From the NCBI RefSeq assembly GCF_054482525.1, contig NZ_CM137006.1: a stretch of DNA of 64,000 nt; one strand, given 5' to 3'. The position numbers and the translations under genes are program-made. This document shows positions 13,514 to 50,953 of the stretch, in pieces; within the stretch, counting starts at the first letter, position 1; each line of letters begins with the position of its first letter. The notes under the pieces were generated by a model that did not search any database, was not told the origin of the DNA, and worked only from the letters and a program-made list of their open reading frames with translations.

Positions 13514-13584
13514 GTAACGATTATCAAAGTTTCAGTGGGGCGCAAACTCAATGAGAGACTAACCTCTCGCACCCCGTTGCTTAA

Positions 13585-14568: not shown

Positions 14569-14604
14569 ATCAGCTCCTTTGCACGGAAATAATGCCACAG
14601 TCAC

Positions 14605-16722: not shown

Positions 16723-16814
16723 CAATCATCAGGCTCTTTTTGAGTCATATGCGCCGATAATCAACTGTCTTGAACGTAACAATTATGGAGCAACATGATG
16801 CTACGATTCATTTC

Positions 16815-17000
16815 ACTCTTCGTTCTTTCTGAGCATTGCGTTCAGGATGGTCAGCAATTTACGCATACAGTCAACCAGCGCCACTTTTTTGGTTTTTCCG
16901 GCTGCTGACAGATGCATGTAAAACGCCTTTATCACCGGATTAAACCAGGTTACCACAAGCGCTGCCATGTGCAGGGCTGCTCTTGCCTCCGTACGCGCAC
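16815..17000 (-). pseudogene. IS110-family transposase, C-terminal fragment
   Basis: Minus-strand translation ends ...VALVDCMRKLLTILNAMLRKNEE*, the conserved IS110-family C-terminus; no N-terminal part. Similar DNA at 56393-56460. Confidence 0.5.
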
Positions 17001-17162
17001 TGGCGTCGTTCGGCCAGCAGATATGTGTGGGATAACAGGGATGTTATGTGAACTGAACTGTGTTTTGTTAACGGGGGATGTTTATTGATGATTCGGTAGT
17101 GTTTAAGACCTGATGGCGTTATGCTCCCAAGTTTATTTTATATAAAGATCCAAAAGCAAAAA

Positions 17163-17180
17163 CCCGCCTTGTGGGCGGGT
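17163..17180. terminator. GC-rich hairpin (CCCGCC-TTGT-GGGCGGG) flanked by A/T runs
   Basis: Perfect short stem-loop with A-run before and T-run after; next to the tRNA-like repeat. Confidence 0.35.
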
Positions 17181-17193
17181 TCTTTAGAATTAG

Positions 17194-17215
17194 TGGTGCC
17201 GGACTCGGAATCGAA
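17194..17215 (-). repeat. tRNA-Phe 3'-end-like 22-nt repeat (island att-site remnant)
   Basis: TGGTGCCGGACTCGGAATCGAA is the reverse complement of a tRNA-Phe acceptor/T-arm 3' end with one base missing; no full tRNA present. Confidence 0.5.
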
Positions 17216-17325: not shown

Positions 17326-18168
17326 TCAGGCTGAGAGCACAGAAGGAAAGTACCTGGCTATTATATCGTTAATTCTGTCAATCAGTTCCAGCCTTTTGAA
17401 AGTGATGTGTGCAGATCCCTTCTTAAAGTATTTAATGATGAACATCTCGTCTTCATAGCGCTCTTTACCCTGAACGGACTGGATGTGACCATCCAGACGA
17501 ATAGTGATGTTTTCCCGGTTGTCGGGGATCGGTTTGCCGCTGAACAGATGTAGCATTCTTTCCAGGTCGACGAGTCGGTCAGTCTGTTGCCCGGTGATAA
17601 GATGAAACCCCCACCGGTCCCACCTCACCAGGTTGTTGACGATAATTTTACTGCCAAATTTGCAGGGGCAATTGGTTTTGTAATTCCAGCTCAGTCCCCT
17701 GAAGACGTTGATCACCCCTCGCTCAAACACCTCATCCTTATTCTGGTGTAGTTGTTCAAATGTGCTCAGAATGTTCGCTTCACTGATTTCCGGAAAATTA
17801 TCGTGCTCCAGTGACCGGTACCATGTATCACGGGCCTGTGCATCCATTAAGGAAAGCATCCCTGAACGTTGCATCAGGTCACGCCAGATTTCGCGATCGA
17901 GATTGCGTGTGATAGCTTTCATTGCGGTTTCCGGTTTCTCCATCAGCCAGCAGCCGCAGCGAAAATCCTGTTTCATGGCCCAGTCCGGGGCGGCTTTACC
18001 GCCAATACTTTCTGTCATTGCTGAGATTTCAGCCAGTTGCCGGATAAGTGTGTCGATTTGCAGCAGTGTACTTTTTCGTACAGCCAGAATGTGGCGGATA
18101 CTGGTTGAGCAGATAACGTCCGTATGCCCGGTGACCACTTCCGGATGGGAGATTGTGATGTTTGACAT
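17326..18168 (-). CDS. Conserved island protein, probably DUF4942 family (CP4-44-like module, copy 1)
   Basis: 280 aa; paralog of 45243-46109; occupies the module-terminal position after the YeeW-like genes. Confidence 0.6.
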   Translation of the reverse strand: MSNITISHPEVVTGHTDVICSTSIRHILAVRKSTLLQIDTLIRQLAEISAMTESIGGKAAPDWAMKQDFRCGCWLMEKPETAMKAITRNLDREIWRDLMQRSGMLSLMDAQARDTWYRSLEHDNFPEISEANILSTFEQLHQNKDEVFERGVINVFRGLSWNYKTNCPCKFGSKIIVNNLVRWDRWGFHLITGQQTDRLVDLERMLHLFSGKPIPDNRENITIRLDGHIQSVQGKERYEDEMFIIKYFKKGSAHITFKRLELIDRINDIIARYFPSVLSA

Positions 18169-18252
18169 TATCGGTTTCCCTTTTGGTTTATAAACGAAAA
18201 CGCCAGCCGTATTCAGGCTGGCGTCAGGGTAATGAAGCGTGGTGAGTGATAT

Positions 18253-18450
18253 TCACCGGTTCTGGTGCAGAAGCTGCAGATGACGCAGGGTACGGACATC
18301 CTCTCTGGCCTGTTCGATACAGGGCAACAGTGCTGCCGAATCCGTTCTATCCTCATCGTTGTCAAAGATAATTCCCGATTCGCAGTCGATATTGTCCTGC
18401 AGCCACGCAATGAGGATATCCAGCGCTGTTTCCGTGGTTAATGATTTCAT
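18253..18450 (-). CDS. Small conserved protein downstream of yeeW-like gene (copy 1)
   Basis: MKSLTTETALDILIAWLQDNIDCESGIIFDNDEDR...; start placed at ATG 18450 behind AGGAACAAC; paralog at 46194-46391. Confidence 0.5.
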   Translation of the reverse strand: MKSLTTETALDILIAWLQDNIDCESGIIFDNDEDRTDSAALLPCIEQAREDVRTLRHLQLLHQNR

Positions 18451-18461
18451 GTTGTTCCTGG

Positions 18462-18950
18462 TTATCAGTCGAAAGTGGGCAGGTCCGGCAGACATTCAGC
18501 GCTGGCATCCAGATGAATGAGACTGACGCCATAACGTTGGATGAGTGTGACAAACAGACGACGGAACGTTTTTGACAGCCCCAGGCGTTTAAGCCGCAGA
18601 ACCGGATATGATCACGCATCGGTACGTAACAGATATCCGCTACCTGTGAAATGAATCCATTCTGATTCGCCGAAGTCACTGGTCTGGTGTGACAGTGAGT
18701 ACAACCAGGCGTTGTCCGTTTCCGTGATATGTGCGGTACTGCAGCGTATGCCGGCAAGGGTTGCAAATGGCGGTGGTGTGCAGGTTGACTGTTGGTCGGA
18801 TTCCTCTGCCACACGGAGTGAATAATCGTTTTCAGCGACGTTATTAATCAGTTCAGTGAGATTAACACCATCGACGTCAACGACAATTCGCCCCATGTTC
18901 AGTGCCTGCACATTAATGCTGTCGGCTTCCAGCATCAGGGAAAGTTTCAT
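18462..18950 (-). pseudogene. YeeW-like protein, truncated by a TGA nonsense codon at codon 113 (copy 1)
   Basis: Copy 2 (46403-46894) reads through TGG (W) where copy 1 has TGA; downstream frame in copy 1 still encodes SYPVLRLKRLG... Confidence 0.55.
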
Positions 18951-19321
18951 CGTTTCTCCGGATGCTTACCCAGGGTAATGTTATTTACCGTTCTGTAATT
19001 GTCGCGGGTCATCAGGCCGGTCGCCCTGCGAGCCCGGAGGATATCGATGCTGTTTATTAACTGAGAGCGGGTACAGGCACTGAATTCCGGCTGGTCGGTA
19101 CGCACCAGTGCGTATTTTTCAACAAGAAAGTTCACTGCATCGCACAGTGAAATGCCAGCTTCAATATGCTGCTCAATCACACGTTCATCGGCGAACGGTG
19201 TGTCATTCAGCGTAAGGCCGTAATGCTGGTCCAGCAACCGGGACAGCAGTGTCTGCCAGATGGTGACGGGAGACGGGCAGCGCGATGCCTCCCGTACGTG
19301 TGTGTCGGGTAATGTTTTCAT
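18947..19321 (-). CDS. cbtA: CbtA/YeeV-family toxin
   Basis: 124 aa, [56 protein letters not shown]... Confidence 0.85.
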
Positions 19322-19410
19322 ACTGAAGGTTTTCCTGATATGCAGAGATGAAAAATGGAAAAGTGGCGTGGTGAAAGCACCAGGCCGGAGCAGAAGGTTA
19401 TTCCGGTGGT

Positions 19411-19791
19411 TTACTTTTTCGTTTCGGATGTTGGATAAACAGCCAGATAAACGTAACCACAGCTGCCGAGGGTGTCGGCTTCGCAGGTCAGCCCTTTCGC
19501 ATACAGTGTGACGGTATGCTGATGGCGGGGATTCAGTTCACCGCCGGTGAGCATGAGTTCCAGTTGTTTCATCAGCAGCGGAAAGGCCTGGTCCAGGTGG
19601 TACGCATCCGCGTCGCTGAACAGGCCTCTGATACCGGCGCGGTCGGCAAGGTAATGCAACCGGTTACCCTCCTGCACCAGACGTGCCCCGAAACAGGGCG
19701 TCACGGTGCAGGGTAGCCCCCCACCAGGGGCGGTTGTTGTTGTCGGGATGCGTTGTCCCGGGGAGTGTGTCTGACACGATAAAATCCTCAC
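19411..19791 (-). CDS. cbeA: CbeA/YeeU-family antitoxin, N-terminal frameshift relative to copy 2
   Basis: Residues after ~25 match YeeU ([31 protein letters not shown]...); copy 1 has a 6-C run at 19727-19732 where copy 2 has 5. Confidence 0.7.
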
Positions 19792-19856
19792 AGAAAATCG
19801 GTTAAGAATGGTCCGGTGGTGGCGATAATTCTGCTCATCTGAATGCCCTTCCAGAC

Positions 19857-20078
19857 TCAGTTCAGGGTGACGCTCATCAGCCGGACATACGGGCCAAAAC
19901 TGTCCTTACGGCGTTCAGCAAACACAGCCAGCACACCGGGAATATCCTGCACTTCACGACCGGTATACGTCTCAGCACTGCCGTGCCAGCGGTACTTACC
20001 GGTACAGAACGGAAAAAGACGGGATGCAGGATGCTGTTGGTGAATACGCATGGCTTCACCACGGGTGATAATTTTCAT
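19857..20078 (-). CDS. yeeT: DUF987/YeeT-like protein
   Basis: 73 aa, MKIITRGEAMRIHQQHPASRLFPFCTGKYRWHG...; conserved position between radC-like and cbeA. Confidence 0.7.
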   Translation of the reverse strand: MKIITRGEAMRIHQQHPASRLFPFCTGKYRWHGSAETYTGREVQDIPGVLAVFAERRKDSFGPYVRLMSVTLN

Positions 20079-20146
20079 GATGGGATACCTCTGAAGACAG
20101 AAGATAAAAGTGAAAACAAGTGTGATGTGGTTGTGACGGTGACGGG

Positions 20147-20638
20147 TTAAAGCAGACCGTGTTCGGCAAAGGAGAAAACCTGGTTGCCACCGACTATCAG
20201 ATGGTCCGGCACCCGGATATCCACCAGGCCCAGTGCCTGTACCAGACGTTCCGTGATAAGGCGGTCTGCCTTACTGGGTGTGACTTCACCGGACGGGTGA
20301 TTGTGCGCCAGCACCACGGCAGCGGCATTGTGGTACAGGGCGCGTTTAATCACTTCCCGGGGATGGACTTCCGTGCGGTTGATGGTGCCGGTGAAGAGGG
20401 TTTCACCGGCAATCAGCTGATTCTGGTTATTCAGATACAGTACCCGGAACTCTTCACGCTCCAGTCCCGCCATGTTCAGAATCAGCCATTCCCGTGCCGC
20501 ACGGGTGGAGGTGAAGGCCACGCCGGGTTCATGAAGATGGCGTTCCAGGGTTTTCAGGGCCCGCAGAATGAGACTGCGCTCGCCGGGCGTCATCTCTCCT
20601 GGCAGAAAGGAAAGTTGTTGCATTGTGCTTCTCTCCAT
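20147..20638 (-). CDS. yeeS: RadC-like JAB-domain protein (YeeS/YkfG/YfjY family)
   Basis: 163 aa; JAMM-like motif HNHPSGEVTPSKAD. Confidence 0.85.
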   Translation of the reverse strand: MERSTMQQLSFLPGEMTPGERSLILRALKTLERHLHEPGVAFTSTRAAREWLILNMAGLEREEFRVLYLNNQNQLIAGETLFTGTINRTEVHPREVIKRALYHNAAAVVLAHNHPSGEVTPSKADRLITERLVQALGLVDIRVPDHLIVGGNQVFSFAEHGLL

Positions 20639-21124
20639 TCAGTCGATGATGCGCATAATGGCGCTGCATTCCGGATGCTGCAGGGCGTAATCCCGCAGCC
20701 GGTAATAATGGACCGTCATGGCATAACACTCCGTACGACAGGCATGATGACTGTACGTCATCAGACAGGCAGCAATGCCGGCGGCTTCCGGGCTCATTTC
20801 AGCGCGGTTACCGTTCATGACATTGAACAGTACCCATGTTTCGTCATCATCGTCATCCGGTTCGGGTGCCATAAATGCCCCTCCGTTATTCAGTGTGTAC
20901 AGATTCCAGATACCACCGCAGTAGTCTTCACACAGACGGTCCATCCAGCCGAAGACACGGGGCTCCAGGGTCACCCACTGTGGAATGAGGCCAAAGTGCT
21001 GTGGCCAGAAGCTGATGCACTGTTCATCAGGGACGGGAGTGGCAACCAGTTGAGACTGGTTATTCCCTGATGCAGTAGTTACGGAAACAGAAGGTGTGGT
21101 GGAATTATGTGAAACGGTTGTCAT
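20639..21124 (-). CDS. Antirestriction protein (KlcA/ArdB-like, YfjX/YafX family)
   Basis: Start placed at ATG 21124 (MTTVSHNS...) behind AAGGA; acidic DDDDDE stretch; paralog at 48551-49036. Confidence 0.8.
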   Translation of the reverse strand: MTTVSHNSTTPSVSVTTASGNNQSQLVATPVPDEQCISFWPQHFGLIPQWVTLEPRVFGWMDRLCEDYCGGIWNLYTLNNGGAFMAPEPDDDDDETWVLFNVMNGNRAEMSPEAAGIAACLMTYSHHACRTECYAMTVHYYRLRDYALQHPECSAIMRIID

Positions 21125-21214
21125 GATATTATTCCTTATAAAAAGCAAATGAATGAAGAAGGCTCGGGGGCAGGGACAGACGTGAGTCAGGACGGCGCTT
21201 TCAGGTAAACGGTA

Positions 21215-22033
21215 TCAGCGCATGTTCTCCAGCAGCGTTTCCGCCATCACCCATAATGCGCGATTGAGCTTAATATCGGTGTCGATGCTGTGAATGGCCC
21301 GGGTATGGATACGTTTTCCTCTGGCACTGCGGCCGGAAATTCCGCCTTTCAGCATATTCTCCTGGATGGTCTGATATGCGCTCCACAGGTCCTTACCGTA
21401 ATCCTCCCTGCGTCGTGGCGTAAGAATGTCAGCGGTGGTGACGGGCTGATGTTCGTCACCATAACGGTAAGTCAGGGCCGCCTGTGCCAGCGCCTGGCGT
21501 GCCGGTGGCGGCAGGACCAGCGACTGCATGGCATCACGCTTCTCCTCTATCCGGTCAAACACGCCCACCACCTCGTAAGCCCCTTCGATAACTTTCTCCA
21601 CTACATTTCCCCGGTGTGGAACACGCACTTCCCCCAGAGACTGGCCACAGACGCACCCGTTCTGGCAGACGAACCTGAAGTAACCCGGCAGCATCTGGTA
21701 GCTGGAGGTACCGTCATGAGAGTTGAGCAGAATAATTTCAGGGACATGTTCTCCGTTTATCTCTCCGGCCCGCCGCAGACGCAGCATGTGTTTGGTATAT
21801 TCCCGGCGGCTCTGGTCGCGCACACGGGTCTGGCAGGCGAAGAACGGCTGAAAGCCTTCCCGCTGCAGATTTTCCAGGACGGTAATGGTGGGAATGTACG
21901 CATACCGTTCACTGCGGGAGGTGTGCCGGTCTTCCCCAAAAATACTGGGTACATGGCGTATCAGTTCTTCATGTGTCAGCGGACGGTCACGGCGTATCTG
22001 GTTTACATGACCAAAACGACTTGCTAATCGCAT
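21215..22033 (-). CDS. DUF932-family protein (YfjQ/YafZ-like)
   Basis: 272 aa; conserved module position; paralog at 49128-49946. Confidence 0.7.
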   Translation of the reverse strand: MRLASRFGHVNQIRRDRPLTHEELIRHVPSIFGEDRHTSRSERYAYIPTITVLENLQREGFQPFFACQTRVRDQSRREYTKHMLRLRRAGEINGEHVPEIILLNSHDGTSSYQMLPGYFRFVCQNGCVCGQSLGEVRVPHRGNVVEKVIEGAYEVVGVFDRIEEKRDAMQSLVLPPPARQALAQAALTYRYGDEHQPVTTADILTPRRREDYGKDLWSAYQTIQENMLKGGISGRSARGKRIHTRAIHSIDTDIKLNRALWVMAETLLENMR

Positions 22034-22123
22034 GATTTGCTCCTTATGAATGAGTTAGCGGTATAAATGAAAAAGCCGCGTCTTCTGGAGAAGACGCGGC
22101 CTGATGGATCAAGTGAATGACGT

Positions 22124-22357
22124 TTATTGCCTGAGAATTCCCTCACTGGCGAGATACGGATTTAGCTGTTTTCCGGCATCAGGTTCAAAATTCCAGCACC
22201 GCCAGCGTAGCTGCCCTTCAGCATTGCGAATAACCAACCGGAAATGTGTTCCCTGGTCATCTTCAATAAGCACATTAAGGTAAGCCGTTGTGACGGCAAG
22301 TGCCTGGTTGCGTGAGAAAGGGCCTTCGGGCAATAAACGTGATGTACAACCCGGCAT
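22124..22357 (-). CDS. DUF905-family small protein
   Basis: 77 aa; paralog at 50037-50246 (…[15 protein letters not shown]…). Confidence 0.6.
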
Positions 22358-22427
22358 ATCTGTTGCTCCCTGTAAGTAAAAGGCCCCGGTAATGATGACC
22401 GGGGCCTGAAGGGGAGTGACCTGATTA

Positions 22428-25274
22428 TCAGAAAGTCACGTTCAGTGTGGCCTGACCGTTATAACCTTCAGCGCTGCTGCCGCTGACACTGTGGGCATAA
22501 CCGGCCTGAACGCCCAGGGTGATATTTTCCCGGACACGGGCTTCCAGTCCGGCCTGCAGGTCCAGTGACGTGCCATTCTGGGACGGTGAGAACGTCATGT
22601 TACTGCCGGCTGCGGCTGTACCCATGCTCATGTCTCCCCGGGAGCTGAAGGTGCGGATAACAGAAGGCTGTACCCACCAGTTCACCGGCAGTTCACTCAC
22701 GCTGTGTTTGGCACTGTCGCGCAGGGTGTCACGGGATGAGGTGCCTTCGCCAAAGGTCATATCGTTGTGGCTGCCCAGACGGAAACCGGCACGCACATGT
22801 TGTGCACTGCCATGCCCGAACTTCACATAACCGGCGTTATCCTGACCGTCATCCAGGGAGAGCCCCTGCCAGGTGTACTGCAGTTGTGGCTCCAGCATCA
22901 GGTTGTCAGTGATACTGAAGGGCAGACCGGTTTCCAGTGAGCCCAGCCAGCCCCAGCCCCGGGCGCGGAAGTCGTTATTGTCCGATGACGCTTTCATGCT
23001 GTGGCGGGTTCCCTGTGCCACAATGTCAGCCCACAGGCCGGAGGATGTGTGTACCAGATTCAGGTATCCGCCCAGACTGCCGGCATCATCCCGGACCGTG
23101 CCGGCGCGGGAGCCGTCATCATCCTTAACATCAACGGAAGAATGGCCTGCAGCACCATACACCCCTGTCGTCAGAGACATACCGGCAACCTCTGTTCTGA
23201 GCAGGTCACCCTCCAGACGGACGAAGCCATAGCTGCCGCTGCTTTCCGGCGTGGCCCCACGGGCAATACCGCCGTTGTTATCGTGCCCGAGATGACCGCC
23301 CTGAATGCTGAGACGGACGCTGTTATTTTCACCGTTTACACCGGTCTGATGGCTGCGGGAGCCTGCCAGAATCCGGTCATAGTCCATTGCCTGTGTCAGC
23401 ATGGAGGCATACAGGGGGACTTCAGCACGATAAGCATTTTCACTGCGCAGGTACCAGTCTTCATCGCTGTCACGGTTCAGGGTGTAGTTAAAGGCGCCGG
23501 CCTGAAGCGGGCGGCTCAGGGCAAACGCACCTTCTTCTGTGGTGGCACCATTCTGTGCATCCACAACCCGGATACCCTGTCCGGTGGTTGCCACCCCGAG
23601 GTTACTGTTTCCGACATTTGTGAACGCAAGCCAGGTTTTGCCGGTTGCCTGGCCACCATTAATCACCAGCTGGTCAGAGGCATTGCTGCCATCAAGGCGA
23701 ACACGCATATTGATGGTGCCCCCCTGACCGGTGAGGTTACTGGTGGTCAGTTTATGGAACGTTACCGGGGAGTCGCCTTTTGCAACAGCACGGCTCAGCG
23801 CGGCATCCGGTGTCGTCTGATTATCAAAGTGAATCTCTCCTGCGTTAACAATATCGCCGGTACTGACCACATCACCATTCAGTACCATGCTGGCGCCTTT
23901 ACTGAGCTGTGTTCTGCCACTCAGACTTCCCCCGGCAGCCAGCGTCAGTGTTCCACGATGTCCGACAGTGGTGTTGCCTGCCTGTCCCCCGGCATTAACC
24001 GTAAAGCTGCCGCCATTTTCCAGTAGCAGGCCGCTGGCCTGCCCGGATATGCCATCAATACTGAACTTACCGCTGGCATTGGTCCCCTCAACAGTGGCAC
24101 CACTGTCTGCTATCAGGGCACCACCGGATGTCATGGTGACATCTGTTGCCTTACCACCGGCAGACACTGCCAGGGTACCGCCGTCATCCACCAGTGTTTT
24201 CTGCGCTGAATGGCCCTCCAGTACATCCAGGCGACCGCCGGACTCCAGAACAACGCCGTCAGCCTTACCGTTTTCCACCGTGAAATTGCCCAGACGGTTG
24301 CTGCCGGTGACGGTTGCCGCCGTACTGGTGACCAGTGCGCCGCCCTGCGTCAGGGTGACATTCGTGGCTGTACCACCGGCGTTCACCTGCAGTTTGCCTT
24401 TCTGGTTAACGGTGGTGAAATCCGCCAGACCACCTTCCTTGATAATCTGCCAGCCGTCACTGTTAACAACAGTGCCAGACGCCGTACCGCCGTTGTGCAC
24501 ATACTGGTACCCCCCATTCAGCGTGGTATCCAGTGCGTGACCATGTACAGTCTGGTCGCCGCCGGCATAAACCACAGTGGTATTTGCCGTTCCTTCAGCA
24601 GCCACAATCTGACGACCATTTTTATTGATGGTGGTGCGTACGGCATCTCCGTAGACGGTCTGCCCGGTATCACCATTTTCCGCATCCGGTCCTCCTTCCG
24701 CGCCAGTATTCACAACCGTGTCGGTTGCCATTGCGCCGGATTTGACGGCCTGCCAGCCCTTCTCATTAATGACGGTACCCGTTGCAATCCCGCCTTCATG
24801 TACCCACTGCTCACCGCCGTTCAGAGTGGTGTTCACTGCCTGCCCCTGAAGGCTCTGTCCGCCTCCGGCCCTGATAACCGTGTCTGAAACGCTTCCTCCG
24901 GCATTCACTCTCTGAAGACCACCACCGGTGACAGTAGTGTTGTTGGCGATACCGCCATTTTGTATCCATTGCCCGCCGGTATTGGCCTCGTTATCCGGCC
25001 CATACTCCAGACCGGTACTGATGGTCATTCCGTTGGCTGTACCGAAGACAATCTGGTTGTCATGATTTTCCAGTGCTCCGCCGCTCACGGTTTCTCCCGC
25101 CTGTACAACCGTGTCAGCAGCCAGTACCGGGAGTGATGTGACAGCAGCAAGAGACAGCGCAACCGCCACACCGGCGCGTTTTCCCCGTGAGCGGGCCAGT
25201 TCGGAGGCCACCACCAGGGTGCCCGTAATGTGATTCCATACCAGCCTGTAGCTGGTGTTCAGATGTCGTTTCAT
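22428..25274 (-). CDS. flu: Antigen 43 (Ag43/Flu) self-associating autotransporter adhesin
   Basis: Start at [18 protein letters not shown] (ATG 25274 behind AAGGAAAA); extended signal peptide, repetitive passenger, C-terminal beta-barrel ending ...[12 protein letters not shown]. Track ORF starts 75 nt upstream. Confidence 0.9.
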
Positions 25275-25487
25275 CAGCTTTTCCTTACAGAGGGTGAATA
25301 AAAAAGCCGGTACCCACAAATGTGGATACCGGCAGGTACAAAACAGCATGGTCAGATAAAGTGGTTTTTCCCGGACATAAATGCTTCCCCTCTCTCATCC
25401 GCCTGAGAAGTATCAGTCCGTTGTGTGCAATTCCGTTCTGCATGATGAAGAGATTCAGCTGCCTTTTCGCAGGCCATTAACCACTAT

Positions 25488-25531
25488 AAACGATCGATAT
25501 AAACGATCGATATCTGTTTTATCGATCGTTT
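25488..25531 (-). promoter_or_regulatory. agn43 phase-variation switch: three GATC sites (Dam/OxyR region)
   Basis: GATC at 25492, 25505 and 25524 inside AAACGATCGATATAAACGATCGATATCTGTTTTATCGATCG, about 220-250 bp upstream of the Ag43 start. Confidence 0.6.
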
Positions 25532-25646
25532 TATTCTATTAATAACAAGGCAGCCACGCAAGAGAAACAGGAGGAGTATGAGGGGTTTGTGTCATGTTTT
25601 CAGTTGGTTAACGCAATGTAATCAGGCATTTCCTCTGGCAGAGTGT

Positions 25647-26519
25647 TCAGAAGAAAATCCAGTTCCATACAGCGCGGGCAACAGAGACCACCGAGTCACG
25701 GACGGCACGCAGAACCGTGCGTGCAACAGAGGCAATACAGACGCTCTCCGCTGTGTCAAATATCCGGTCCACCGCACCGGTAAACTGTTCACGGGCCTGA
25801 GACCGGACAGATTCCGTGCGCAGCTCGTCCTGCAGGCGGGTCATCAGGGGACTGGCGGCATGGTCGGGAAGCGCTGTCATGAGCGCACTGACCAGCGTAT
25901 CCAGTTCCCAGCCGGTGCGGGCCGATACGGCCACAACCGGATGTACGGGCCGGAACAGACGGAATACCGCCTCCGTTTTTTCGCGAATATTCTGTGCCTG
26001 TGCGGGAGAAGGCTGAATACCGGCCATATCCCATTCATGGCAGGGCTCCGTTTTGTCGGCCTGCGTCACCACAAACAGCACCTGCTGATGTCCCCGGTGC
26101 AGGATGTGTCGCCAGAAATACTCATCCACAGACAGGGCGCGGTCATCGGCTTTAATCAGCCACAGCACCAGGTCCAGTTCGGGCAGAATGTCACGGTACA
26201 GGGCTTCATACTCTGCATCTCTGTCCCGGCTCTCGCCCACCCCGGGCAGGTCAGTGATAACCATGCTGTGACCGTGGCCACTCAGACGGAAGCGCCGCAC
26301 TTCCCGGGTGCCGGCGTGAACATCACTGACCGGGGTGACCTCCCCCTGAAACAGTGCATTACAGAGTGAGGATTTACCGGCCCCGCTTTTACCCATAATG
26401 CCAATCACGGGTTCGTGACTGGTGAGTTTGCGCAGATGTTCCAGGATGTGACGGGAAAGTGAGTAAGGCAGGGAGGAGAGCGGTTTTTCAATTGCCTCAA
26501 TGGCATCAGACGGATTCAT
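25647..26519 (-). CDS. yeeP: YeeP/YfjP/YkfA-family GTPase (copy 1)
   Basis: P-loop GIMGKSGAGKSSLCNALF and DLPG motif; start placed at ATG 26519 (the longer track ORF begins with GTG and no SD). Confidence 0.8.
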   Translation of the reverse strand: MNPSDAIEAIEKPLSSLPYSLSRHILEHLRKLTSHEPVIGIMGKSGAGKSSLCNALFQGEVTPVSDVHAGTREVRRFRLSGHGHSMVITDLPGVGESRDRDAEYEALYRDILPELDLVLWLIKADDRALSVDEYFWRHILHRGHQQVLFVVTQADKTEPCHEWDMAGIQPSPAQAQNIREKTEAVFRLFRPVHPVVAVSARTGWELDTLVSALMTALPDHAASPLMTRLQDELRTESVRSQAREQFTGAVDRIFDTAESVCIASVARTVLRAVRDSVVSVARAVWNWIFF

Positions 26520-42858: not shown

Positions 42859-44121
42859 CTATTTTAATGGATTGTTAATCTTTGCATATTCAAACGGGCT
42901 GATACATTGTTCTCTGTTCGCACCCAGAAAATCTGCCCACCACTGTAGCATCAGTCGACGTTCTTCCAGATGTTCTGCTTTATGGATATATGCAGCACGT
43001 ACACCATTACGCTCCTGATGGCTCATCTGACGTTCCACAGCATCGCGGGACCACAAACCTGATTCAATCAATGCACTGCACGCCATCGCCCGGAATCCAT
43101 GACCACAGACTTCCTGGGTTGTGTCATATCCCATCACCCTCAGGGCTTTATTTACAGTATTTTCACTGATCGGTTTACGCGGGTCATGTGCTCCCGTAAA
43201 GATCAGACCATTTTCACCAGCCCATGTCTGTAGTTCTGTCAGTATGGCTACAGCCTGTTTGCTGAGTGGCACAAGATGTGGTGTTCGCATCTTGGAGCCC
43301 CGGTGTGAGTATTTTACGCCTGGCAGAGGTTCGCGTTCGGCTGGAATAGTCCACATGGCATTGTCAATATCAATTTCAGACCAGCGGGAATATCTGAGTT
43401 CACTGGAACGAATAAAAACCAGTAAATTCAGCATAACTGCCAGTCGGGTGACAGGCTGACCTTTATAACCGTCAATACGCGACAGAAGTTCAGGCAGGCG
43501 TGAAAGATCCAGAGCAGGGCGATGCTGGCGTTTTACCGTGGTCAATGCACCAGCCATATCCAGAGCCGGGTTATATCTGATGATGCCAGACTGTACGGCA
43601 TAACGCATTACAGCAGATATTCTTTGCTGCAGACGACTGGCGATTTCATAAATTTGTTTTGCTTCTGCAGCACGAACAGGGATAAGCAGGTCCGGGGTAT
43701 TGAGTGTTGTGATATCCCGGTTGCCGATAAAGGGGAAAACGTGTGTCTCGAGGCTTTTGATTACTTTATCGCTGTGTGATTGTGCCCATTGTTTATTACT
43801 GGCATGCCAGCGTCGTGCAATATGTTCAAAAGAGAGTTGTAAATCAGGGACTACTTTTTTAGCTCTTTTTTGTTCGCAAGGGTCAATCCCCTCTGAAATC
43901 AGTTTTCGGGCCTCATCCCGTTTTGTACGAGCTTCGGAGAGAGAAACTTCTGGATATACACCAAGTGCCAGAGTCTTCTCCTTACCCAGAATACGATAAC
44001 GGAGACGCCAGTAACGGGAACCATTAGGATGAACCAGCAGGAACATGCCAGCCCCGTCAGTGAGTTTATAAGCCTTGTCAGTGTGCTTTGCAGCCCGGAT
44101 TTTTGCGTCAGTCAGTGCCAT
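42859..44121 (-). CDS. int: P4/CP4-57-type tyrosine integrase
   Basis: 420 aa; MALTDAKIRAAKHTDKAYKLTDGAGMFLLVHPNGSRYWRLRYR N-terminus; C-terminal catalytic region with R...HxxR...Y. Confidence 0.9.
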   Translation of the reverse strand: MALTDAKIRAAKHTDKAYKLTDGAGMFLLVHPNGSRYWRLRYRILGKEKTLALGVYPEVSLSEARTKRDEARKLISEGIDPCEQKRAKKVVPDLQLSFEHIARRWHASNKQWAQSHSDKVIKSLETHVFPFIGNRDITTLNTPDLLIPVRAAEAKQIYEIASRLQQRISAVMRYAVQSGIIRYNPALDMAGALTTVKRQHRPALDLSRLPELLSRIDGYKGQPVTRLAVMLNLLVFIRSSELRYSRWSEIDIDNAMWTIPAEREPLPGVKYSHRGSKMRTPHLVPLSKQAVAILTELQTWAGENGLIFTGAHDPRKPISENTVNKALRVMGYDTTQEVCGHGFRAMACSALIESGLWSRDAVERQMSHQERNGVRAAYIHKAEHLEERRLMLQWWADFLGANREQCISPFEYAKINNPLK

Positions 44122-44306: not shown

Positions 44307-44318
44307 TTGATATGAATT

Positions 44319-44340
44319 TGGTGCCCGGACTCGGAATGAA
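44319..44340 (-). repeat. tRNA-Phe 3'-end-like repeat (island att-site remnant)
   Basis: TGGTGCCCGGACTCGGAAT matches the reverse complement of a tRNA-Phe 3' end, then diverges; no full tRNA. Confidence 0.55.
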
Positions 44341-44584: not shown

Positions 44585-44911
44585 TTATGGCTGCCAGAAA
44601 TGATCTGATGGTTTGTCGTCTGGCTCTGCAAGTACCCTGTTGATATCCCGGGAACCATGAACGATACGTTCGATACGAACTTCAGTATCCAGTACCCTGA
44701 ACAGCAGAAGGTAACGACCATACGAACAACCTCTGATCCCAGCCCCTAACTCGGGTCTTTCTCTGTAGAGTACTGGCGATTCGGCTATCAACAGACATTG
44801 TTGGTAAAGCTCTTCGGTAAAACTGATTGCACGGACAGGATTATCCTGAGCGATCCAGTCACCTATAGCTTCAAGATCGTGTTCTGCTAATGGTGAAACA
44901 GTCAGTTTCAT
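44585..44911 (-). CDS. parE: ParE/RelE-superfamily toxin (type II TA)
   Basis: 108 aa; 4-nt overlap with the upstream antitoxin gene. Confidence 0.75.
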   Translation of the reverse strand: MKLTVSPLAEHDLEAIGDWIAQDNPVRAISFTEELYQQCLLIAESPVLYRERPELGAGIRGCSYGRYLLLFRVLDTEVRIERIVHGSRDINRVLAEPDDKPSDHFWQP

Positions 44912-45171
44912 ATTGGCTGTTCACCTTCTGCCATCTTTTTGTATTTGTGCGTCAGTCGCCCGAATACCTCTTCAGCACTTTTACTTTCACCGCTGTTGAT
45001 GCCTGCGGCCACGGCGCTCTGGAGTGATTCAAGCTTTATCTGCTGTTCCCGTTCTTCCAGAGCACGAAGTCCGGCACGAATGACTTCACTTGTATTGTTG
45101 TACCGACCACTTTCTATTTGTTCGCGGATAAACGTTTCAAAGTAAGGACTGAGGGATACACTGGTAGGCAT
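44908..45171 (-). CDS. parD: ParD-like antitoxin (type II TA)
   Basis: 87 aa; ...SEVIRAGLRALEEREQQ... ParD-type fold signature. Confidence 0.7.
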   Translation of the reverse strand: MPTSVSLSPYFETFIREQIESGRYNNTSEVIRAGLRALEEREQQIKLESLQSAVAAGINSGESKSAEEVFGRLTHKYKKMAEGEQPI

Positions 45172-45242: not shown

Positions 45243-46109
45243 TTATGCCTTGCGGCTTTTGTTCACTGTGCTTGCCAGGGCTTCCGGGTAGTGTCTGGCA
45301 ATAATATCATTAAGCCTGTCAACCAGCTCTGGTTTCCTGAACGTGATGTGCGCGGAGCCCTTCTTAAAGTATCTGATGCTGAACATCTCATCTTCATAGT
45401 CCTCTTTACCCTGAACAGACTGGATGTGATCATCCAGATGAATGGTGATGTTTTCCCGGTTGTCGGGGATCGGTTTGCCGCTGAACAGGTGCAGCATTCT
45501 TTCCAGATCGGCAAGTCGATCGGCCTGTTGTCCGGTGATAAGATGAAACCCCCACCGGTCCCACCTCACCAGATTGTTGACGATAATTTTACTGCCAAAT
45601 TTGCAGGGTGAATTGGTTTTGTAATTCCAGCTCAGTCCTCTGAAAACGTTGAGCACCCCTCGCTCAAACACTTCATCTTTGTTCTGGTGCAGTTGTTCAA
45701 ACGTGCTCAGGATATTTGCTTCGCTGATTTCCGGAAAATTATCGTACTCCAGTGACCGGTACCATGTATCACGGGCTTGTGCATCCATTAATGACAGCAT
45801 CCCTGAACGTTGCATCAGATCACGCCAGATTTCGCGGTCAAGGTTGCGGGTGATGGCTTTCATTGCGGTTTCCGGTTTTTCCATCAGCCAGCAACCGCAG
45901 CGAAAATCCTGTTTCATGGCCCAGTCCAGTGCAGTTTTACCTCCGATGCTTTCCGTCAGCACCGAGATTTCTGCCAGTTGCCGGATAAGTGTGTCGATTT
46001 GCAGCAGCGCACTCTTTCGTACAGCCAGAATGTGGCGGATGCTGGTTGAGCCGATAACGTCCGTATGCCCGTTGACCACTTCCGGACGGGGGGCTGTGAT
46101 TTCAGACAT
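45243..46109 (-). CDS. Conserved island protein, probably DUF4942 family (copy 2)
   Basis: 288 aa; paralog of 17326-18168. Confidence 0.6.
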   Translation of the reverse strand: MSEITAPRPEVVNGHTDVIGSTSIRHILAVRKSALLQIDTLIRQLAEISVLTESIGGKTALDWAMKQDFRCGCWLMEKPETAMKAITRNLDREIWRDLMQRSGMLSLMDAQARDTWYRSLEYDNFPEISEANILSTFEQLHQNKDEVFERGVLNVFRGLSWNYKTNSPCKFGSKIIVNNLVRWDRWGFHLITGQQADRLADLERMLHLFSGKPIPDNRENITIHLDDHIQSVQGKEDYEDEMFSIRYFKKGSAHITFRKPELVDRLNDIIARHYPEALASTVNKSRKA

Positions 46110-46193: not shown

Positions 46194-46391
46194 TCACCGG
46201 TTCTGTTGCAGAAGCTGCAACTGGCGCAGGATACGGATATCCTCCCTGGCCTGTTCGATACAGGGCAACAGTGCTGCCGAATCCGTTCTATCCTCATCGT
46301 TGTCAAAGATAATTCCCGATTCGCAGTCGATATTGTCCTGTAGCCACGCAATCAGAATATCCAGTGCGGTTTCCGTGGTTAATGATTTCAT
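46194..46391 (-). CDS. Small conserved protein downstream of yeeW-like gene (copy 2)
   Basis: Paralog of 18253-18450; start at ATG 46391, 11 nt after the yeeW-like stop. Confidence 0.5.
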   Translation of the reverse strand: MKSLTTETALDILIAWLQDNIDCESGIIFDNDEDRTDSAALLPCIEQAREDIRILRQLQLLQQNR

Positions 46392-46402: not shown

Positions 46403-46894
46403 TTACCAGTCGAAAGTGGGCAGGTCCGGCAGACATTCAGCGCTGGCATCCAGATGAATGAGACTGACGCCATAACGTCGGGTAAGTGTGACAACCAGAC
46501 GACGGAACGTTTTTGACAGGCCCAGGCGCTTAAGCCGCAGAACCGGGTATGACCACGCATCGGTACGTAACAGATATCCGCTACCTGTGAAATGAATCCA
46601 TTCTGATTCGCCGGTGCCATTCGTCTGATGTGACAGCGAGTACAGCCAGGCGTTGTCCTTTGCCGTGATATGCGCGGTACTGCAGCGTATGCCGGTAAGG
46701 GCCGCCGCAGATGATGGCGTGCGCTCTGCTGATGTCCGGTCAGATTCATCAACAACACGAAGGGAGTAACCGTTATCGCAGACCACGTTAATCAGTTCAG
46801 CGAGAGTAACACCATCGACGTCAACGACAATGCGCCCCATGTTCAGTGCCTGCACGTTAATGCTGTCGGCTTCCAGCGTCAGGGCCAGTTTCAT
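46403..46894 (-). CDS. yeeW: YeeW-like protein, full length (copy 2)
   Basis: 163 aa; intact counterpart of the truncated copy at 18462-18950. Confidence 0.65.
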   Translation of the reverse strand: MKLALTLEADSINVQALNMGRIVVDVDGVTLAELINVVCDNGYSLRVVDESDRTSAERTPSSAAALTGIRCSTAHITAKDNAWLYSLSHQTNGTGESEWIHFTGSGYLLRTDAWSYPVLRLKRLGLSKTFRRLVVTLTRRYGVSLIHLDASAECLPDLPTFDW

Positions 46895-47268
46895 TGTTTC
46901 GCCCCCGGATGTTTACCCAGGGTAATGTTATTTACCGTTCTGTAATTGTCGCGGGCCATCAGGCCGGTTGCCCGGCGGGCCCGGAGGATATCAATACTGT
47001 TTATTAACTGAGAACGGGTACAGGCGCTGAATCCTGGCTGGTCGGTACGTACCAGTGCGTATTTTTCAACGAGAAAGTTCACCGCATCGCACAGTGAAAT
47101 GCCTGCCTCAATATGCTGCTCAATCACACGTTCATCAGCGAACGGTGTGTCATTCAGTGTGAGGCCGTAATGCTGGTCCAACAGTCGGGTGAGCAGTGTC
47201 TGCCAGATGGTGACGGGAGACGGGCAGCGCGATGCCTCCCGTACGTGTGTGTCAGGTAATGTTTTCAT
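46891..47268 (-). CDS. cbtA: CbtA/YeeV-family toxin (copy 2)
   Basis: Start at MKTLPDTHV (47268); the track ORF extends upstream to 47370. Confidence 0.85.
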   Translation of the reverse strand: MKTLPDTHVREASRCPSPVTIWQTLLTRLLDQHYGLTLNDTPFADERVIEQHIEAGISLCDAVNFLVEKYALVRTDQPGFSACTRSQLINSIDILRARRATGLMARDNYRTVNNITLGKHPGAKQ

Positions 47269-47314: not shown

Positions 47315-47689
47315 TTATGAGGTGGTTGCGGGTGCCAGTGTCGGATAAACAGCCATATAAACGTAACCACAACTGCTGAGGGTATCGGCTTTGCAGGTCA
47401 GCCCTTTTGCATACAGCGTGACGGTATGCTGATGGCGGGGATTCAGTTCACCGCTGGTGAGCATGAGTTCCAGTTGTTTCATCAGCAGCGGAAAGGCCTG
47501 GTCCAGATGGTACGCATCCGCGTCGCTGAACCGGCCTCTGATACCGGCGCGGTCTGCAAGGTAATGCAACCGGTTACCCTCCTGCACCAGACGTGCCCCA
47601 AAACAGGGCGTCACGGTGCAGGGTAGCCCCCACCAGGGGCGGTCGTTGTTATCGTCGGGATGCGTTGTCCCGGGGAGAGTGTCTGACAC
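47315..47689 (-). CDS. cbeA: CbeA/YeeU-family antitoxin (copy 2, intact frame)
   Basis: 124 aa, [42 protein letters not shown]...; GTG start. Confidence 0.8.
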   Translation of the reverse strand: MSDTLPGTTHPDDNNDRPWWGLPCTVTPCFGARLVQEGNRLHYLADRAGIRGRFSDADAYHLDQAFPLLMKQLELMLTSGELNPRHQHTVTLYAKGLTCKADTLSSCGYVYMAVYPTLAPATTS

Positions 47690-47768: not shown

Positions 47769-47990
47769 TCAGTTCAGGGTGACGCTCATCAGCCGGACAT
47801 ACGGGCCAAAACTGTCCTTACGGCGTTCAGCAAACACGGCCAGCACACCGGGAATATCCTGCACTTCACGACCGGTATACGCTTCAGCACTGCCGTGCCA
47901 GCGGTATTTGCCGGTACAGAACGGAAAAAGACGGGATGCCGGATGCTGACGGTGAATACGCATGGCTTCGCCACGGGTGATGATTTTCAT
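47769..47990 (-). CDS. yeeT: DUF987/YeeT-like protein (copy 2)
   Basis: 73 aa paralog. Confidence 0.7.
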   Translation of the reverse strand: MKIITRGEAMRIHRQHPASRLFPFCTGKYRWHGSAEAYTGREVQDIPGVLAVFAERRKDSFGPYVRLMSVTLN

Positions 47991-48058: not shown

Positions 48059-48550
48059 TTAAAGCAGACCGTGTTCCGCAAAGGAGAAAACCTGGTTGCC
48101 ACCAACTATCAGATGGTCCGGTACCCGGATATCCACCAGGGCCAGTGCCTGTACCAGGCGTTCCGTGATAAGGCGATCTGCCTTACTGGGGGTGACTTCA
48201 CCGGACGGGTGGTTGTGTGCCAGTATCACGGCAGCGGCATTGTGGTACAGGGCACGTTTAATTACCTCCCGGGGATGGACTTCCGTGCGGTTGATGGTGC
48301 CTGTGAAGAGGGTTTCACCGGCAATCAGCTGATTCTGGTTGTTCAGATACAGTACCCGGAACTCTTCCCGCTCCAGTCCCGCCATGTTCAGAATCAGCCA
48401 TTCCCGTGCCGCATGCGTGGAGGTGAAGGCCACACCGGGTTCATGAAGATGGCGGTCCAGGGTTTTCAGGGCCCGCAGAATGAGGCTGCGCTCGCCGGGC
48501 GTCATCTCTCCGGGCAGAAAGGAAAGCTGTTGCATTGTGCTTCTCTCCAT
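48059..48550 (-). CDS. yeeS: RadC-like JAB-domain protein (copy 2)
   Basis: 163 aa; HNHPSGEVTPSKAD. Confidence 0.85.
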   Translation of the reverse strand: MERSTMQQLSFLPGEMTPGERSLILRALKTLDRHLHEPGVAFTSTHAAREWLILNMAGLEREEFRVLYLNNQNQLIAGETLFTGTINRTEVHPREVIKRALYHNAAAVILAHNHPSGEVTPSKADRLITERLVQALALVDIRVPDHLIVGGNQVFSFAEHGLL

Positions 48551-49036
48551 TCAGTCGATGATGCGCATAATGGCGTTGCATTCCGGATGCTGCAGGGCGT
48601 AATCCCGCAACCGATAATAATGGACCGTCATGGCATAATTCTCTGTACGACAGGCGTGATGACTGTACGCCATCAGACAGGCGGCAATGCCGGCGGCTTC
48701 CGGGCTCATTTCAGCGCGGTTGCCGTTCATGGCATTGAACAGTACCCATGTTTCGTCATCATCGTCATCCGGTTCGGGTACCATAAATGCCCCACCGTTG
48801 TTCAGGGTGTACAGATTCCAGATACCACCGCAGTAGTCTTCGCAAAGACGGTCCATCCAGCCGAAGACACGGGGCTCCAGGGTCACCCACTGTGGAATGA
48901 GGCCAAAATGTTGCGGCCAGAAACTGATGCGCTGTTCATCAGGGACGGGAGTGGCAACCAGTTGAGACTGGTTATTCCCTGGTGCAGTGGTTACGGAAAC
49001 AGAAGGCGTGGTGGAGCTATGCGAAAAGGTTGTCAT
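48551..49036 (-). CDS. Antirestriction protein (KlcA/ArdB-like, copy 2)
   Basis: 161 aa paralog. Confidence 0.8.
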   Translation of the reverse strand: MTTFSHSSTTPSVSVTTAPGNNQSQLVATPVPDEQRISFWPQHFGLIPQWVTLEPRVFGWMDRLCEDYCGGIWNLYTLNNGGAFMVPEPDDDDDETWVLFNAMNGNRAEMSPEAAGIAACLMAYSHHACRTENYAMTVHYYRLRDYALQHPECNAIMRIID

Positions 49037-49127: not shown

Positions 49128-49946
49128 TCAGCGCATGCTCTCCAGCAGCGTTTCTGCCATCACCCACAATGCGCGATTGAGCTTAATGTCCGTGTCGATG
49201 CTGTGAATGGCACGGGTGTGGATACGTTTTCCTTTAGCGCTGCGACCAGAAATCCCGCCTTTCAGCATATTTTCCTGGATGGTCTGATAAGCACTCCACA
49301 GGTCCTTACCGTAATCCTCCCGGCGTCGTGGCGTCAGAATGTCGGCGGTGGTGACGGGCTGATGTTCGTCACCATAACGGTAAGTCAGTGCCGCCTGTGC
49401 CAGCGCCTGGCGTGCCGGTGGCGGCAGGACCAGCGACTGCATGGCATCACGCTTTTCCTCAATCCGGTCAAAAACGCCCACCACTTCGTAAGCCCCTTCA
49501 ATGACTCTGTCCACCACATTTCCCCGGTGCGGAACACGCACTTCCCCCAGAGACTGACCACAGACGCAGCCGTTCTGGCAGACGAACCTGAAGTAACCCG
49601 GCAGCATCTGGTAGCTGGAGGTACCGTCATGGGAGTTCAGCAGGATGATTTCAGGGACATGTTGTCCGTTTATCTCCCCGTCACGGCGCAGACGCAGCAT
49701 GTGTTTGGTATACCCCCGGCGGCCCGGGTCACGTACGCGGGTCTGGCAGGCAAAGAAGGGCTGAAAGCCTTCCCGCTGCAGGCTTTCCAGCACGGTGATG
49801 GTGGGGATCCAGGTATAGTTCTCGCTTCTGGATGTGTGCTTATCTTCCCCGAATACGCTGGGGACGACCTGCATCAGTTCTTCGCGAGTTAAGGGGCGGT
49901 CACGGCGTATCTGGTTCGCATAACCAAAACGACTTGCTAATCGCAT
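49128..49946 (-). CDS. DUF932-family protein (copy 2)
   Basis: 272 aa paralog. Confidence 0.7.
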   Translation of the reverse strand: MRLASRFGYANQIRRDRPLTREELMQVVPSVFGEDKHTSRSENYTWIPTITVLESLQREGFQPFFACQTRVRDPGRRGYTKHMLRLRRDGEINGQHVPEIILLNSHDGTSSYQMLPGYFRFVCQNGCVCGQSLGEVRVPHRGNVVDRVIEGAYEVVGVFDRIEEKRDAMQSLVLPPPARQALAQAALTYRYGDEHQPVTTADILTPRRREDYGKDLWSAYQTIQENMLKGGISGRSAKGKRIHTRAIHSIDTDIKLNRALWVMAETLLESMR

Positions 49947-50036
49947 GATTTGCTCCTTATGAATGAGTTAGCGATATAAATGAAAAAGCCGCGCCTCCCG
50001 GAGAAGACGCGGCCTGATGGATGAAATGAATGACGT

Positions 50037-50246
50037 TTATTGTCTGAGAAGCCCTTCACTGGCGAGCCACACATTAAGCTGTTTTCCGGCATCGGATTCA
50101 AAATTCCAGTACCGCCAGCGCAACTGACCTTCAGCATTACGGATAACCAGCCGGAAATGCGTTCCCTGGTCATCTTCAATAAGCACATTGCGGTAAGCTG
50201 TTGTGACGGCAACCGCCTGTTCGCGTGAGAAAGGGCCTTCGGGCAA
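50037..50246 (-). CDS. DUF905-family small protein (copy 2)
   Basis: 69 aa paralog. Confidence 0.6.
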
Positions 50247-50275: not shown

Positions 50276-50953
50276 CTATTTTCCGATAAATTCAACGCTG
50301 GCACCGGTGGCATTACCGTCAGCACCAACCGTGACGGTCACTTTGTCGTACGCACGGTCTTCAGGATTGAACACTTCAAACTCAACCTTATTGCCTTTTA
50401 CTTCGTAAGAGCCAAAATCAGCGGTTTCTGTTGTTTCCTCGTCATATTCCCGGGCGTATGCCAGCCGGGCAGCCTGCAGGACGGAATCTTTATTAATGGC
50501 GGGTGTCTGTTTCGGGGAAAAACCGGCAAGTGATGTGACAAATTTCGGACAGACCTTCAGCATATCACCGCGGGTGAATTCCATTCGTACACCAAATGCC
50601 TGTAAAACGGACACATCACGCTCTGCTATGGAGTGAACGGCTTTTTTGACCATTTCCGGCGCCTGTCCGACTTCCACCTCAACAGCCCTGAATCCTGTCT
50701 GCTGATTACACATTTGTGATGTGGGGATCAGGTTACCGTTAATACTGATACGGCTGCCCAGGAGCGTCTGTACGCCATTCGGGCATCCCTGCATCAGGCC
50801 GGTAATACCAATCGTGCCATTTTTCAGCATTACCAGCGCCTGACCATCTTCCGTCATGGTCTGACACCAGCCGTTTTTGACAGCCCAGTTACCGGCGGAG
50901 GTGGAGAAGGATGCCACAGTGAACAGCAGGGGAAAAAGCATTCTGGTATTCAT
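50276..50953 (-). CDS. Secreted or periplasmic protein of unknown function (occupies the Ag43 slot in module 2)
   Basis: 225 aa; signal peptide MNTRMLFPLLFTVASFSTSAGN; several Cys. Confidence 0.6.
   Translation of the reverse strand: MNTRMLFPLLFTVASFSTSAGNWAVKNGWCQTMTEDGQALVMLKNGTIGITGLMQGCPNGVQTLLGSRISINGNLIPTSQMCNQQTGFRAVEVEVGQAPEMVKKAVHSIAERDVSVLQAFGVRMEFTRGDMLKVCPKFVTSLAGFSPKQTPAINKDSVLQAARLAYAREYDEETTETADFGSYEVKGNKVEFEVFNPEDRAYDKVTVTVGADGNATGASVEFIGK

Follow-up and report, generated by a model that had tools for sequence, protein, structure and literature searches.

The 64,000-nucleotide stretch of contig NZ_CM137006.1 (RefSeq assembly GCF_054482525.1) analyzed here, hereafter the window, raises the question of how two gene modules resembling the end of CP4-44 of Escherichia coli K-12 came to lie side by side, with different proteins at the same position. 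In module 1 (17326-26519), this position, between a GTPase gene and the DUF905 gene, holds the adhesin Ag43, and in module 2 (45243-51956), an open reading frame (ORF) for a 225-amino-acid (aa) protein. Here, we report a comparative analysis that leads us, with a probability of roughly 0.85, to the view that the modules belong to P4-integrase islands integrated in tandem at a tRNA-Phe attachment (att) site, each combining a CP4-44-type backbone with its own unit of a GTPase and an envelope protein.

Diverged backbones at the ends of tandem islands

Both modules are encoded on the (-) strand, and their extent and shared gene order, first proposed in a sequence-only reading, are borne out by the ORF lists and by the RefSeq annotation of near-identical genomes (AH50, 99.4% identical over module 1, and strain ECCNB12-2, 100% identical over module 2). 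The order is GTPase, cargo, DUF905, DUF932, antirestriction protein, RadC, DUF987, CbeA, CbtA, DUF5983 (YeeW-like), DUF957 (previously listed as a small ORF), and DUF4942. Within it, the RadC-DUF987-CbeA-CbtA-YeeW(DUF5983) block is collinear in the two modules, according to both the translations and the annotation of 99-100% identical DNA.

The modules are joined by a single 5017-bp blastn high-scoring segment pair, which aligns 17354-22358 with 45295-50271 at 89.8% identity and ends exactly at the 5' end of DUF905; further upstream, only 71 bp in the region of the GTPase P-loop can be aligned. Protein identity between the modules is 79-97.5% across the backbone and 37% for the GTPases, and because the GTPases are this dissimilar, the modules do not represent a recent duplication. 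The earlier description of the modules as diverged at the protein level is thus strongly true of the GTPase but not of the backbone, where nucleotide divergence is only about 10%. For the eight intact gene pairs, the Nei-Gojobori method yields a nonsynonymous divergence (dN) of 0.038, a synonymous divergence (dS) of 0.325, and a dN/dS of 0.12. The near-identity that would betray a recent duplication was therefore not found. Values of dS range from 0.16 for DUF987 and RadC to 0.48 for DUF4942, and sliding-window identity between the modules runs from 60% to 97%; the variation in dS between genes indicates a mosaic history of the backbone. Judged by these comparisons, the two copies are old paralogues maintained by purifying selection, not products of a recent duplication.

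The DNA between the modules contains a direct repeat of the 3' end of tRNA-Phe (TTTCATTCCGAGTCCGGGCACCA) and a complete integrase gene, and we therefore conclude that two islands are integrated in tandem and that the modules are their distal ends. Read along the (-) strand, the order is island B, module 2 with ParDE, the att repeat, the island A integrase, island A, and module 1, followed by IS4/IS110 remnants and the kps capsule cluster. The 18-nt core of the repeat occurs once in the window (44319-44336) and in none of 100 shuffled sequences. The repeat differs by one base from TTTCATTCCGATTCCGGGCACCA, which is tabulated as the 23-bp imperfect direct repeat of GI-pheV in JJ1886, Nissle 1917, and UMN026 (PMC11537424). 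Among the 5426 complete E. coli genomes, 213 have the junction of integrase, repeat, and ParDE. The neighboring kps cluster and the matching genomes point to pheV as the probable site of integration. Thus, the independent acquisition of the modules that had been suggested from the sequence gains support from the dS of 0.33, the dN/dS of 0.12, and the intervening repeat and P4-type integrase.

Under this scenario, each island end would consist of a conserved backbone from DUF905 to DUF4942, which corresponds to the published 'yee module', and, upstream of DUF905, a lineage-specific unit of the island's own, encoding a GTPase and an envelope-targeted protein. The unit of module 1 would be the classical one, with a YeeP-type GTPase, the IsrC leader, and phase-variable Ag43 (the 'flu module'). 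That of module 2 would combine a GTPase of another subtype with a Sec-exported, probably disulfide-bonded periplasmic protein of two domains, whose small orphan family is confined to Enterobacterales. The two would be old paralogous lineages that arrived by separate, successive integrations, with no duplication in situ.

The exchanged unit upstream of DUF905

What differs between the modules is everything upstream of DUF905, the GTPase included. The idea of a single swapped 'adhesin slot' accordingly has to be given up: the cargo co-varies with the GTPase subtype. In Klebsiella and Citrobacter, the gene for the homologue of the 225-aa protein is always flanked by those for a 297-aa GTPase and for DUF932, within a CP4-type module, and these GTPases are 53% identical to that of module 2 and 37-39% identical to that of module 1. 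Longer relatives of the 225-aa protein (336 and 393 aa), which have the N-terminal four-Cys domain in common with it, occupy the same slot. The GTPase and its cargo thus appear to travel as a pair.

By sequence, the unit of module 1 is assignable to the CP4-44 or 'flu + yee' type, with a YeeP-type GTPase, the IsrC leader, and Ag43. Its GTPase shares 98% aa identity over 183 aa with the remnant of the K-12 yeeP pseudogene, Ag43 is 71% identical to K-12 Flu over its full length (948 of 1039 aa), and GATC sites at 25495, 25508, and 25527 align with the Dam/OxyR regulatory region of K-12 flu. This Ag43 fits the Ag43/Cah phase-variable autotransporters, and phase variation is predicted for it as well. 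Module 2 has no flu and a GTPase only 37% identical to that of module 1, so that the YeeP-IsrC-flu arrangement is absent from it.

In most E. coli copies of the module 2 unit, for example in UTI89 (locus L013, 7853-8533), a helix-turn-helix regulator 43% identical to YfjR is encoded between the GTPase and the 225-aa protein; module 2 of the window lacks this gene. Relatives also have such a regulator ahead of the exported-protein gene, and the homologous one in locus L017 (5250-5939) has a precomputed Pfam WYL match. YfjR itself is uncharacterized, and no binding was detected for it by ChIP-exo (chromatin immunoprecipitation with exonuclease digestion) in K-12 (PMC8464067). In module 2, the gene for the 225-aa protein starts 118 bp after the GTPase gene and is followed after 29 bp by DUF905, and the only terminator-like hairpin predicted on the (-) strand within 49900-52200 follows DUF905. 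The gene is probably co-transcribed with its two neighbors. Both GTPases end in hydrophobic or amphipathic C-terminal tails, a hint of membrane association.

To place the two units in a broader context, we surveyed the slot in 80 loci with close relatives of DUF932, one genome per species, in which ORFs were labeled from their blastp matches to a reference set of backbone and slot proteins; the counts cover the 37 loci that have both the GTPase and the antirestriction/RadC delimiters. Ag43 occupies the slot in three to four of these loci and the 225-aa family in one, and a YfjR/WYL-type regulator is present in 26. An N-terminus resembling a signal peptide was detected in 59 of the 87 non-backbone slot ORFs (68%) and in 25 of 402 ORFs (6%) outside the slot of these loci (Fisher odds ratio 32, p = 1.6e-34). 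The strict heuristic used gave no false positives on 172 backbone proteins and missed the extended signal peptide of Ag43, so the figure for the slot is conservative; a more permissive version was discarded, as it flagged 24 of the 26 YfjR regulators. These counts suggest that this slot is, across Enterobacterales, a place for exported or envelope proteins. The sequence-only reading had described the cargo of module 2 as a secreted Cys-containing protein unrelated to Ag43. Lack of sequence relationship is upheld, as are a predicted signal peptide and four Cys residues, but the cargo is not arbitrary, given the enrichment of the slot in exported proteins.

The 225-amino-acid protein and the rival explanations

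The translated 225-aa ORF shows a Sec signal peptide of typical form (MNTRMLFPLLFTVASFSTSA|GNW). Klebsiella, Citrobacter, Enterobacter, and Lelliottia encode equally long homologues, 55-65% identical, and the alignment of the family contains four invariant Cys (C29, C56, C81, and C134) among about 60 invariant columns. The family is small: an exhaustive profile search of 1.84 billion representatives retrieved only 60 proteins at E<=0.001. All matches whose organism was looked up come from Enterobacterales, except for a giant repeat protein, a 7945-aa 'cadherin domain-containing protein' of a Candidatus Marinarcus metagenome-assembled genome (P0061), in which 53 separate stretches match profile positions 148-205. 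This match may reflect a repeated small domain of similar fold, and we set the protein aside as a case of repeat-domain resemblance. In E. coli, the gene is present in 1841 of the 5426 complete genomes, including UTI89, in up to five copies. For E. coli copies compared with one another, dN/dS is 0.25; comparisons between genera, in which dS has reached saturation, give 0.06-0.16. The ORF, intact in the window and conserved in relatives, is thus a genuine gene under purifying selection.

Searches of Pfam, NCBIfam, PHROGs, and PADLOC assign the protein to no family, and Pfam returns nothing even at E<=10. Several candidate relationships were considered and rejected. The META domain, a label carried only by the UniProt fragment A0A8S7K4G7, is ruled out by the lack of a Pfam META (PF03724) match at E<=10. 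PepSY (PF03413) has no Pfam match in the protein and one, at E 0.04, in a distant relative, which leaves a resemblance at the level of the fold; 18 longer relatives scanned with Pfam yielded no informative domain. Kinship to YfjT or YfjS receives a probability of 0.5% and 3.7%, respectively, from hhalign of the family profile, and blastp detects no similarity to YafY, YkfB, or YpjK. We found no literature on the 225-aa protein, and no functional study of DUF905, DUF932, or the slot genes YfjR, YfjS, YfjT, YafY, and YkfB.

An AlphaFold (AF2) model of the protein, with a mean predicted local distance difference test (pLDDT) score of 80, contains two domains. The N-terminal one (residues 22-126 or so) is beta-rich and weakly resembles IalB, and the C-terminal one (about 154-223), a helix with a four-stranded sheet, is cystatin/PepSY/NTF2-like. 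Foldseek detected no match in the PDB at E<=0.001 and, in AFDB50, only the family itself and a few uncharacterized enterobacterial relatives. Periplasmic inhibitor or immunity domains with the PepSY/cystatin-like fold, such as the C-terminal domain of YpeB and the colicin M immunity protein Cmi, have no sequence-level match to the protein; this fold is very common, and here it signifies resemblance, not membership. We infer that the protein may be a periplasmic, disulfide-stabilized protein of the binding or inhibitor type. It would act in the periplasm or envelope, most plausibly by altering the cell surface or excluding incoming elements.

A broader proposal, which we put forward as tentative and more doubtful than probable, is that the stretch from the GTPase to the antirestriction/RadC core of CP4-type island ends is a dedicated cassette, often WYL/YfjR-regulated, of interchangeable exported proteins. 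Perhaps acting with the membrane-associated GTPase that co-varies with them, these proteins would remodel the cell surface or periplasm to the island's advantage, for instance by excluding phages, conjugative elements, or rival islands. Its occupants would include Ag43, YafY/YfjS, YkfB/YfjT, the 225-aa family as a new periplasmic exclusion or inhibitor protein, and many unnamed ORFs with signal peptides.

Alternatively, the 225-aa ORF could be a passive hitch-hiker or a gene in decay, without a module-linked role, as might be gathered from the lack of any family, domain, defense-system match, or literature and from the absence, in the window, of the YfjR-like regulator that precedes most E. 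coli copies. We consider this unlikely, because selection is purifying, with a dN/dS of 0.06-0.25 even where dS is saturated; the four Cys and many other columns are invariant across genera; synteny with a co-diverging GTPase subtype is strict in E. coli, Klebsiella, and Citrobacter; and distant relatives sit in the same slot.

An equally improbable explanation unites the GTPase and the exported protein in a two-gene system for defense or exclusion, in which a dynamin-like or Era-like membrane GTPase would act with a periplasmic partner, Ag43 and the 225-aa protein being alternative effectors. The co-variation of cargo type with GTPase subtype fits this explanation, although linkage alone suffices to produce it. 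The enrichment of the slot in exported proteins is likewise compatible, as are the WYL-type regulators of the delimited loci; regulators of this class are often found beside defense genes. Both GTPases have weak PADLOC matches to LeoBC/LeoA of the dynamin-like defense system Eleos (E about 1e-8 to 1e-5), but these are far below family level and involve only generic G-domain or tail regions. PADLOC found no family-level match to a defense system, and nothing at all for the 225-aa protein, DUF905, DUF932, DUF4942, DUF5983, or DUF957. Moreover, Ag43 is controlled by a promoter and Dam/OxyR switch of its own, and in K-12, where yeeP is a pseudogene, it works alone.

Least probable of all is that one island end was duplicated within this genome and the cargo of one copy later replaced by recombination: the collinear backbone, 90% identical over 5 kb, and a dS that varies about three-fold between genes, suggesting patches of exchange, would agree with such a history, but the dS of 0.33 is far above the divergence within E. 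coli and spread over all genes, an att repeat and a complete integrase separate the copies, each GTPase-cargo pair has its own cross-genus lineage, and other strains such as ECCNB12-2 have a 100% identical module 2 elsewhere in the chromosome, beside cadC.

Several points nevertheless weigh against two separately acquired islands, each with its own GTPase and envelope-protein unit. The integrase and intact tRNA-Phe of island B belong to its far end, outside the window, and pheV is an inferred site. ARAGORN finds no intact tRNA in the window, as island B extends beyond position 64000, and the att assignment rests on a partial repeat. Gene conversion between resident copies could explain some of the similarity of the backbone and blur the case for independent acquisition gene by gene. 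Co-transcription of the cargo is deduced from short gaps and a consensus terminator scan whose matches do not exceed chance, and the slot survey relied on a home-made heuristic applied to raw ORF calls, not on a trained predictor, with both delimiters present in only 37 of the 80 loci.

Features of the locus and comparison with known systems

The features of the two modules and of the DNA between them are listed in Table 1.

Table 1. Genes and sequence elements of modules 1 and 2 and of the island junction, in window coordinates
Feature	Coordinates	Strand	Basis
Module 1 DUF4942	17326..18168	-	
Module 1 DUF957	18253..18450	-	
Module 1 DUF5983 (YeeW-like) pseudogene	18465..18950	-	
Module 1 cbtA toxin, intact	18947..19321	-	
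Module 1 cbeA/yeeU antitoxin, frameshifted	19411..19791	-	'frameshifted' in AH50 annotation; DNA alignment and three-frame translation
Module 1 DUF987	19857..20078	-	
Module 1 RadC/JAB	20147..20623	-	
Module 1 antirestriction protein	20639..21124	-	
Module 1 DUF932	21215..22033	-	
Module 1 DUF905, first gene of the common backbone	22124..22357	-	
Ag43/Cah-family autotransporter adhesin, 948 aa	22428..25274	-	RefSeq annotation; full-length identity to K-12 Flu 71%
flu leader / IsrC (Rfam IS102), 3 GATC sites	25293..25529	-	Rfam RF00124, 79.4 bits; aligned to K-12 flu upstream region
Module 1 GTPase, YeeP type, 290 aa	25647..26519	-	RefSeq 'GTPase family protein' (AH50); Era/Der-like G domain
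P4-type tyrosine integrase, complete, of the island ending in module 1	42859..44121	-	RefSeq annotation, AH50 and other genomes
tRNA-Phe 3'-end direct repeat TTTCATTCCGAGTCCGGGCACCA, att site between the islands	44317..44339	-	Sequence reading
ParE (44585-44911) / ParD (44908-45171), toxin-antitoxin pair, module 2 distal end	44585..45171	-	RefSeq
Module 2 DUF4942	45243..46109	-	
Module 2 DUF957	46194..46391	-	
Module 2 DUF5983, intact	46403..46894	-	
Module 2 cbtA	46891..47268	-	
Module 2 cbeA	47315..47689	-	
Module 2 DUF987	47769..47990	-	
Module 2 RadC	48059..48535	-	
Module 2 antirestriction protein	48551..49036	-	
Module 2 DUF932	49128..49946	-	
Terminator-like hairpin after module 2 DUF905	49986..50015	-	Consensus scan; number of matches not above shuffle expectation
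Module 2 DUF905	50037..50246	-	
225-aa exported four-Cys protein, orphan family, WP_023155728 ('hypothetical protein')	50276..50953	-	
Module 2 GTPase, 294 aa, other subtype	51072..51956	-	

Module 1 is partly decayed. Its DUF5983 gene contains a TGG to TGA change at 18612-18614, and its cbeA is frameshifted relative to the normal start by an additional G in a G-run, although an upstream in-frame GTG (19791) could keep the core in frame with an altered N-terminus. Both genes of the type IV pair CbtA/CbeA are intact in module 2, and in module 1, an intact toxin gene accompanies a frameshifted antitoxin gene with a possible alternative start. It is conceivable that CbtA of module 1 is neutralized in trans by CbeA of module 2. 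Island B ends with two different addiction modules, ParD/ParE and CbtA/CbeA; module 1 has no equivalent of ParDE.

The cbtA gene of the module 2 lineage is a recurrent chromosomal site for ISEcp1-blaCTX-M-55, which carries a gene for a beta-lactamase of the extended-spectrum type (ESBL). This unit lies inside the module 2-type cbtA (window 46891-47268) in many complete E. coli genomes, which are 100% identical to module 2 and come from chicken, human, duck, and mink (locus L012, 1142-4369). The cbtA of module 2 in the window is free of the insertion.

Elsewhere in the window, a group 2 (kps) capsule cluster at 559-14604 counts among its region-2 genes glf, those for glycosyltransferases, and one for a nucleotide-sugar dehydrogenase. 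Between this cluster and module 1, and directly adjoining the latter, are an intact IS4 and what remains of an IS110 (15363-17200); no attR repeat of island A is seen at this end. On the other side of module 2, immediately upstream of its GTPase, the convergent ORFs 52063-52995 (+) and 52992-53801 (-) overlap slightly and encode proteins of 310 and 269 aa. RefSeq lists each as 'hypothetical protein', and neither matches a family in NCBIfam, PHROGs, or PADLOC.

The two-module architecture is textbook E. coli island biology, which explains the accumulation of several CbtA/CbeA pairs and Ag43 alleles, and is of little import beyond annotation. The 225-aa protein, by comparison, is found in a third of complete E. 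coli genomes and in other Enterobacteriaceae. Subject to purifying selection but assigned to no family or function, it is a cheap experimental target. If the exported-protein slot holds with proper predictors, it would give testable access to the role that these very common 'cryptic prophage' ends play for the host or for the element itself.

The occurrence of flu/yee modules as paralogues has been published before, and the architecture itself is not new. Paralogous CP4 prophage ends have been documented in K-12 (PMC5371832), and this genome has three such ends (CP4-44, CP4-6, and CP4-57) with different genes after the GTPase. CP4-6 (ykfA-yafZ-...-yafY-ykfB-ykfF-yafX...) and CP4-57 (yfjP-yfjQ-yfjR-ypjK-yfjS-yfjT...) contain the same backbone families as the modules of the window, and the genes that vary between them, downstream of the GTPase, are those of a YfjR-type regulator and of small exported proteins or lipoproteins: YafY and YfjS are annotated as inner-membrane lipoproteins, and the N-termini of YkfB and YfjT resemble signal peptides by the heuristic. 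Unlike the window, however, these ends have a different order around DUF932, and the 225-aa protein is dissimilar to YafY/YfjS and YkfB/YfjT (blastp; hhalign probability <4%).

Module 1 shares with CP4-44 of K-12 (yeeP-isrC-flu-yeeR-yeeS-yeeT-cbeA-cbtA-yeeW) the GTPase, the IsrC/GATC leader, Ag43, and the RadC-DUF987-CbeA-CbtA-YeeW order. It differs in its intact GTPase, in the presence of DUF905-DUF932-antirestriction where K-12 has yeeR, in its extension to DUF957-DUF4942, in the frameshifted cbeA, and in the stop codon of the yeeW homologue.

The closest parallel to the arrangement as a whole is GI-pheV, a pheV-integrated island whose 'flu' and 'yee' modules, also found in the Shigella she pathogenicity island (PAI), have an unusually high density of single-nucleotide polymorphisms (SNPs) and high recombination (PMC11537424). 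The common features are the P4-type integrase, the near-identical 23-bp tRNA-Phe repeat, flu and then the yee genes at the distal end, and kps as a neighbor. In contrast to GI-pheV, two islands are placed here in tandem, a word absent from that paper (PMC11537424), and the second one replaces the flu unit with a different GTPase and the 225-aa protein and adds ParDE.

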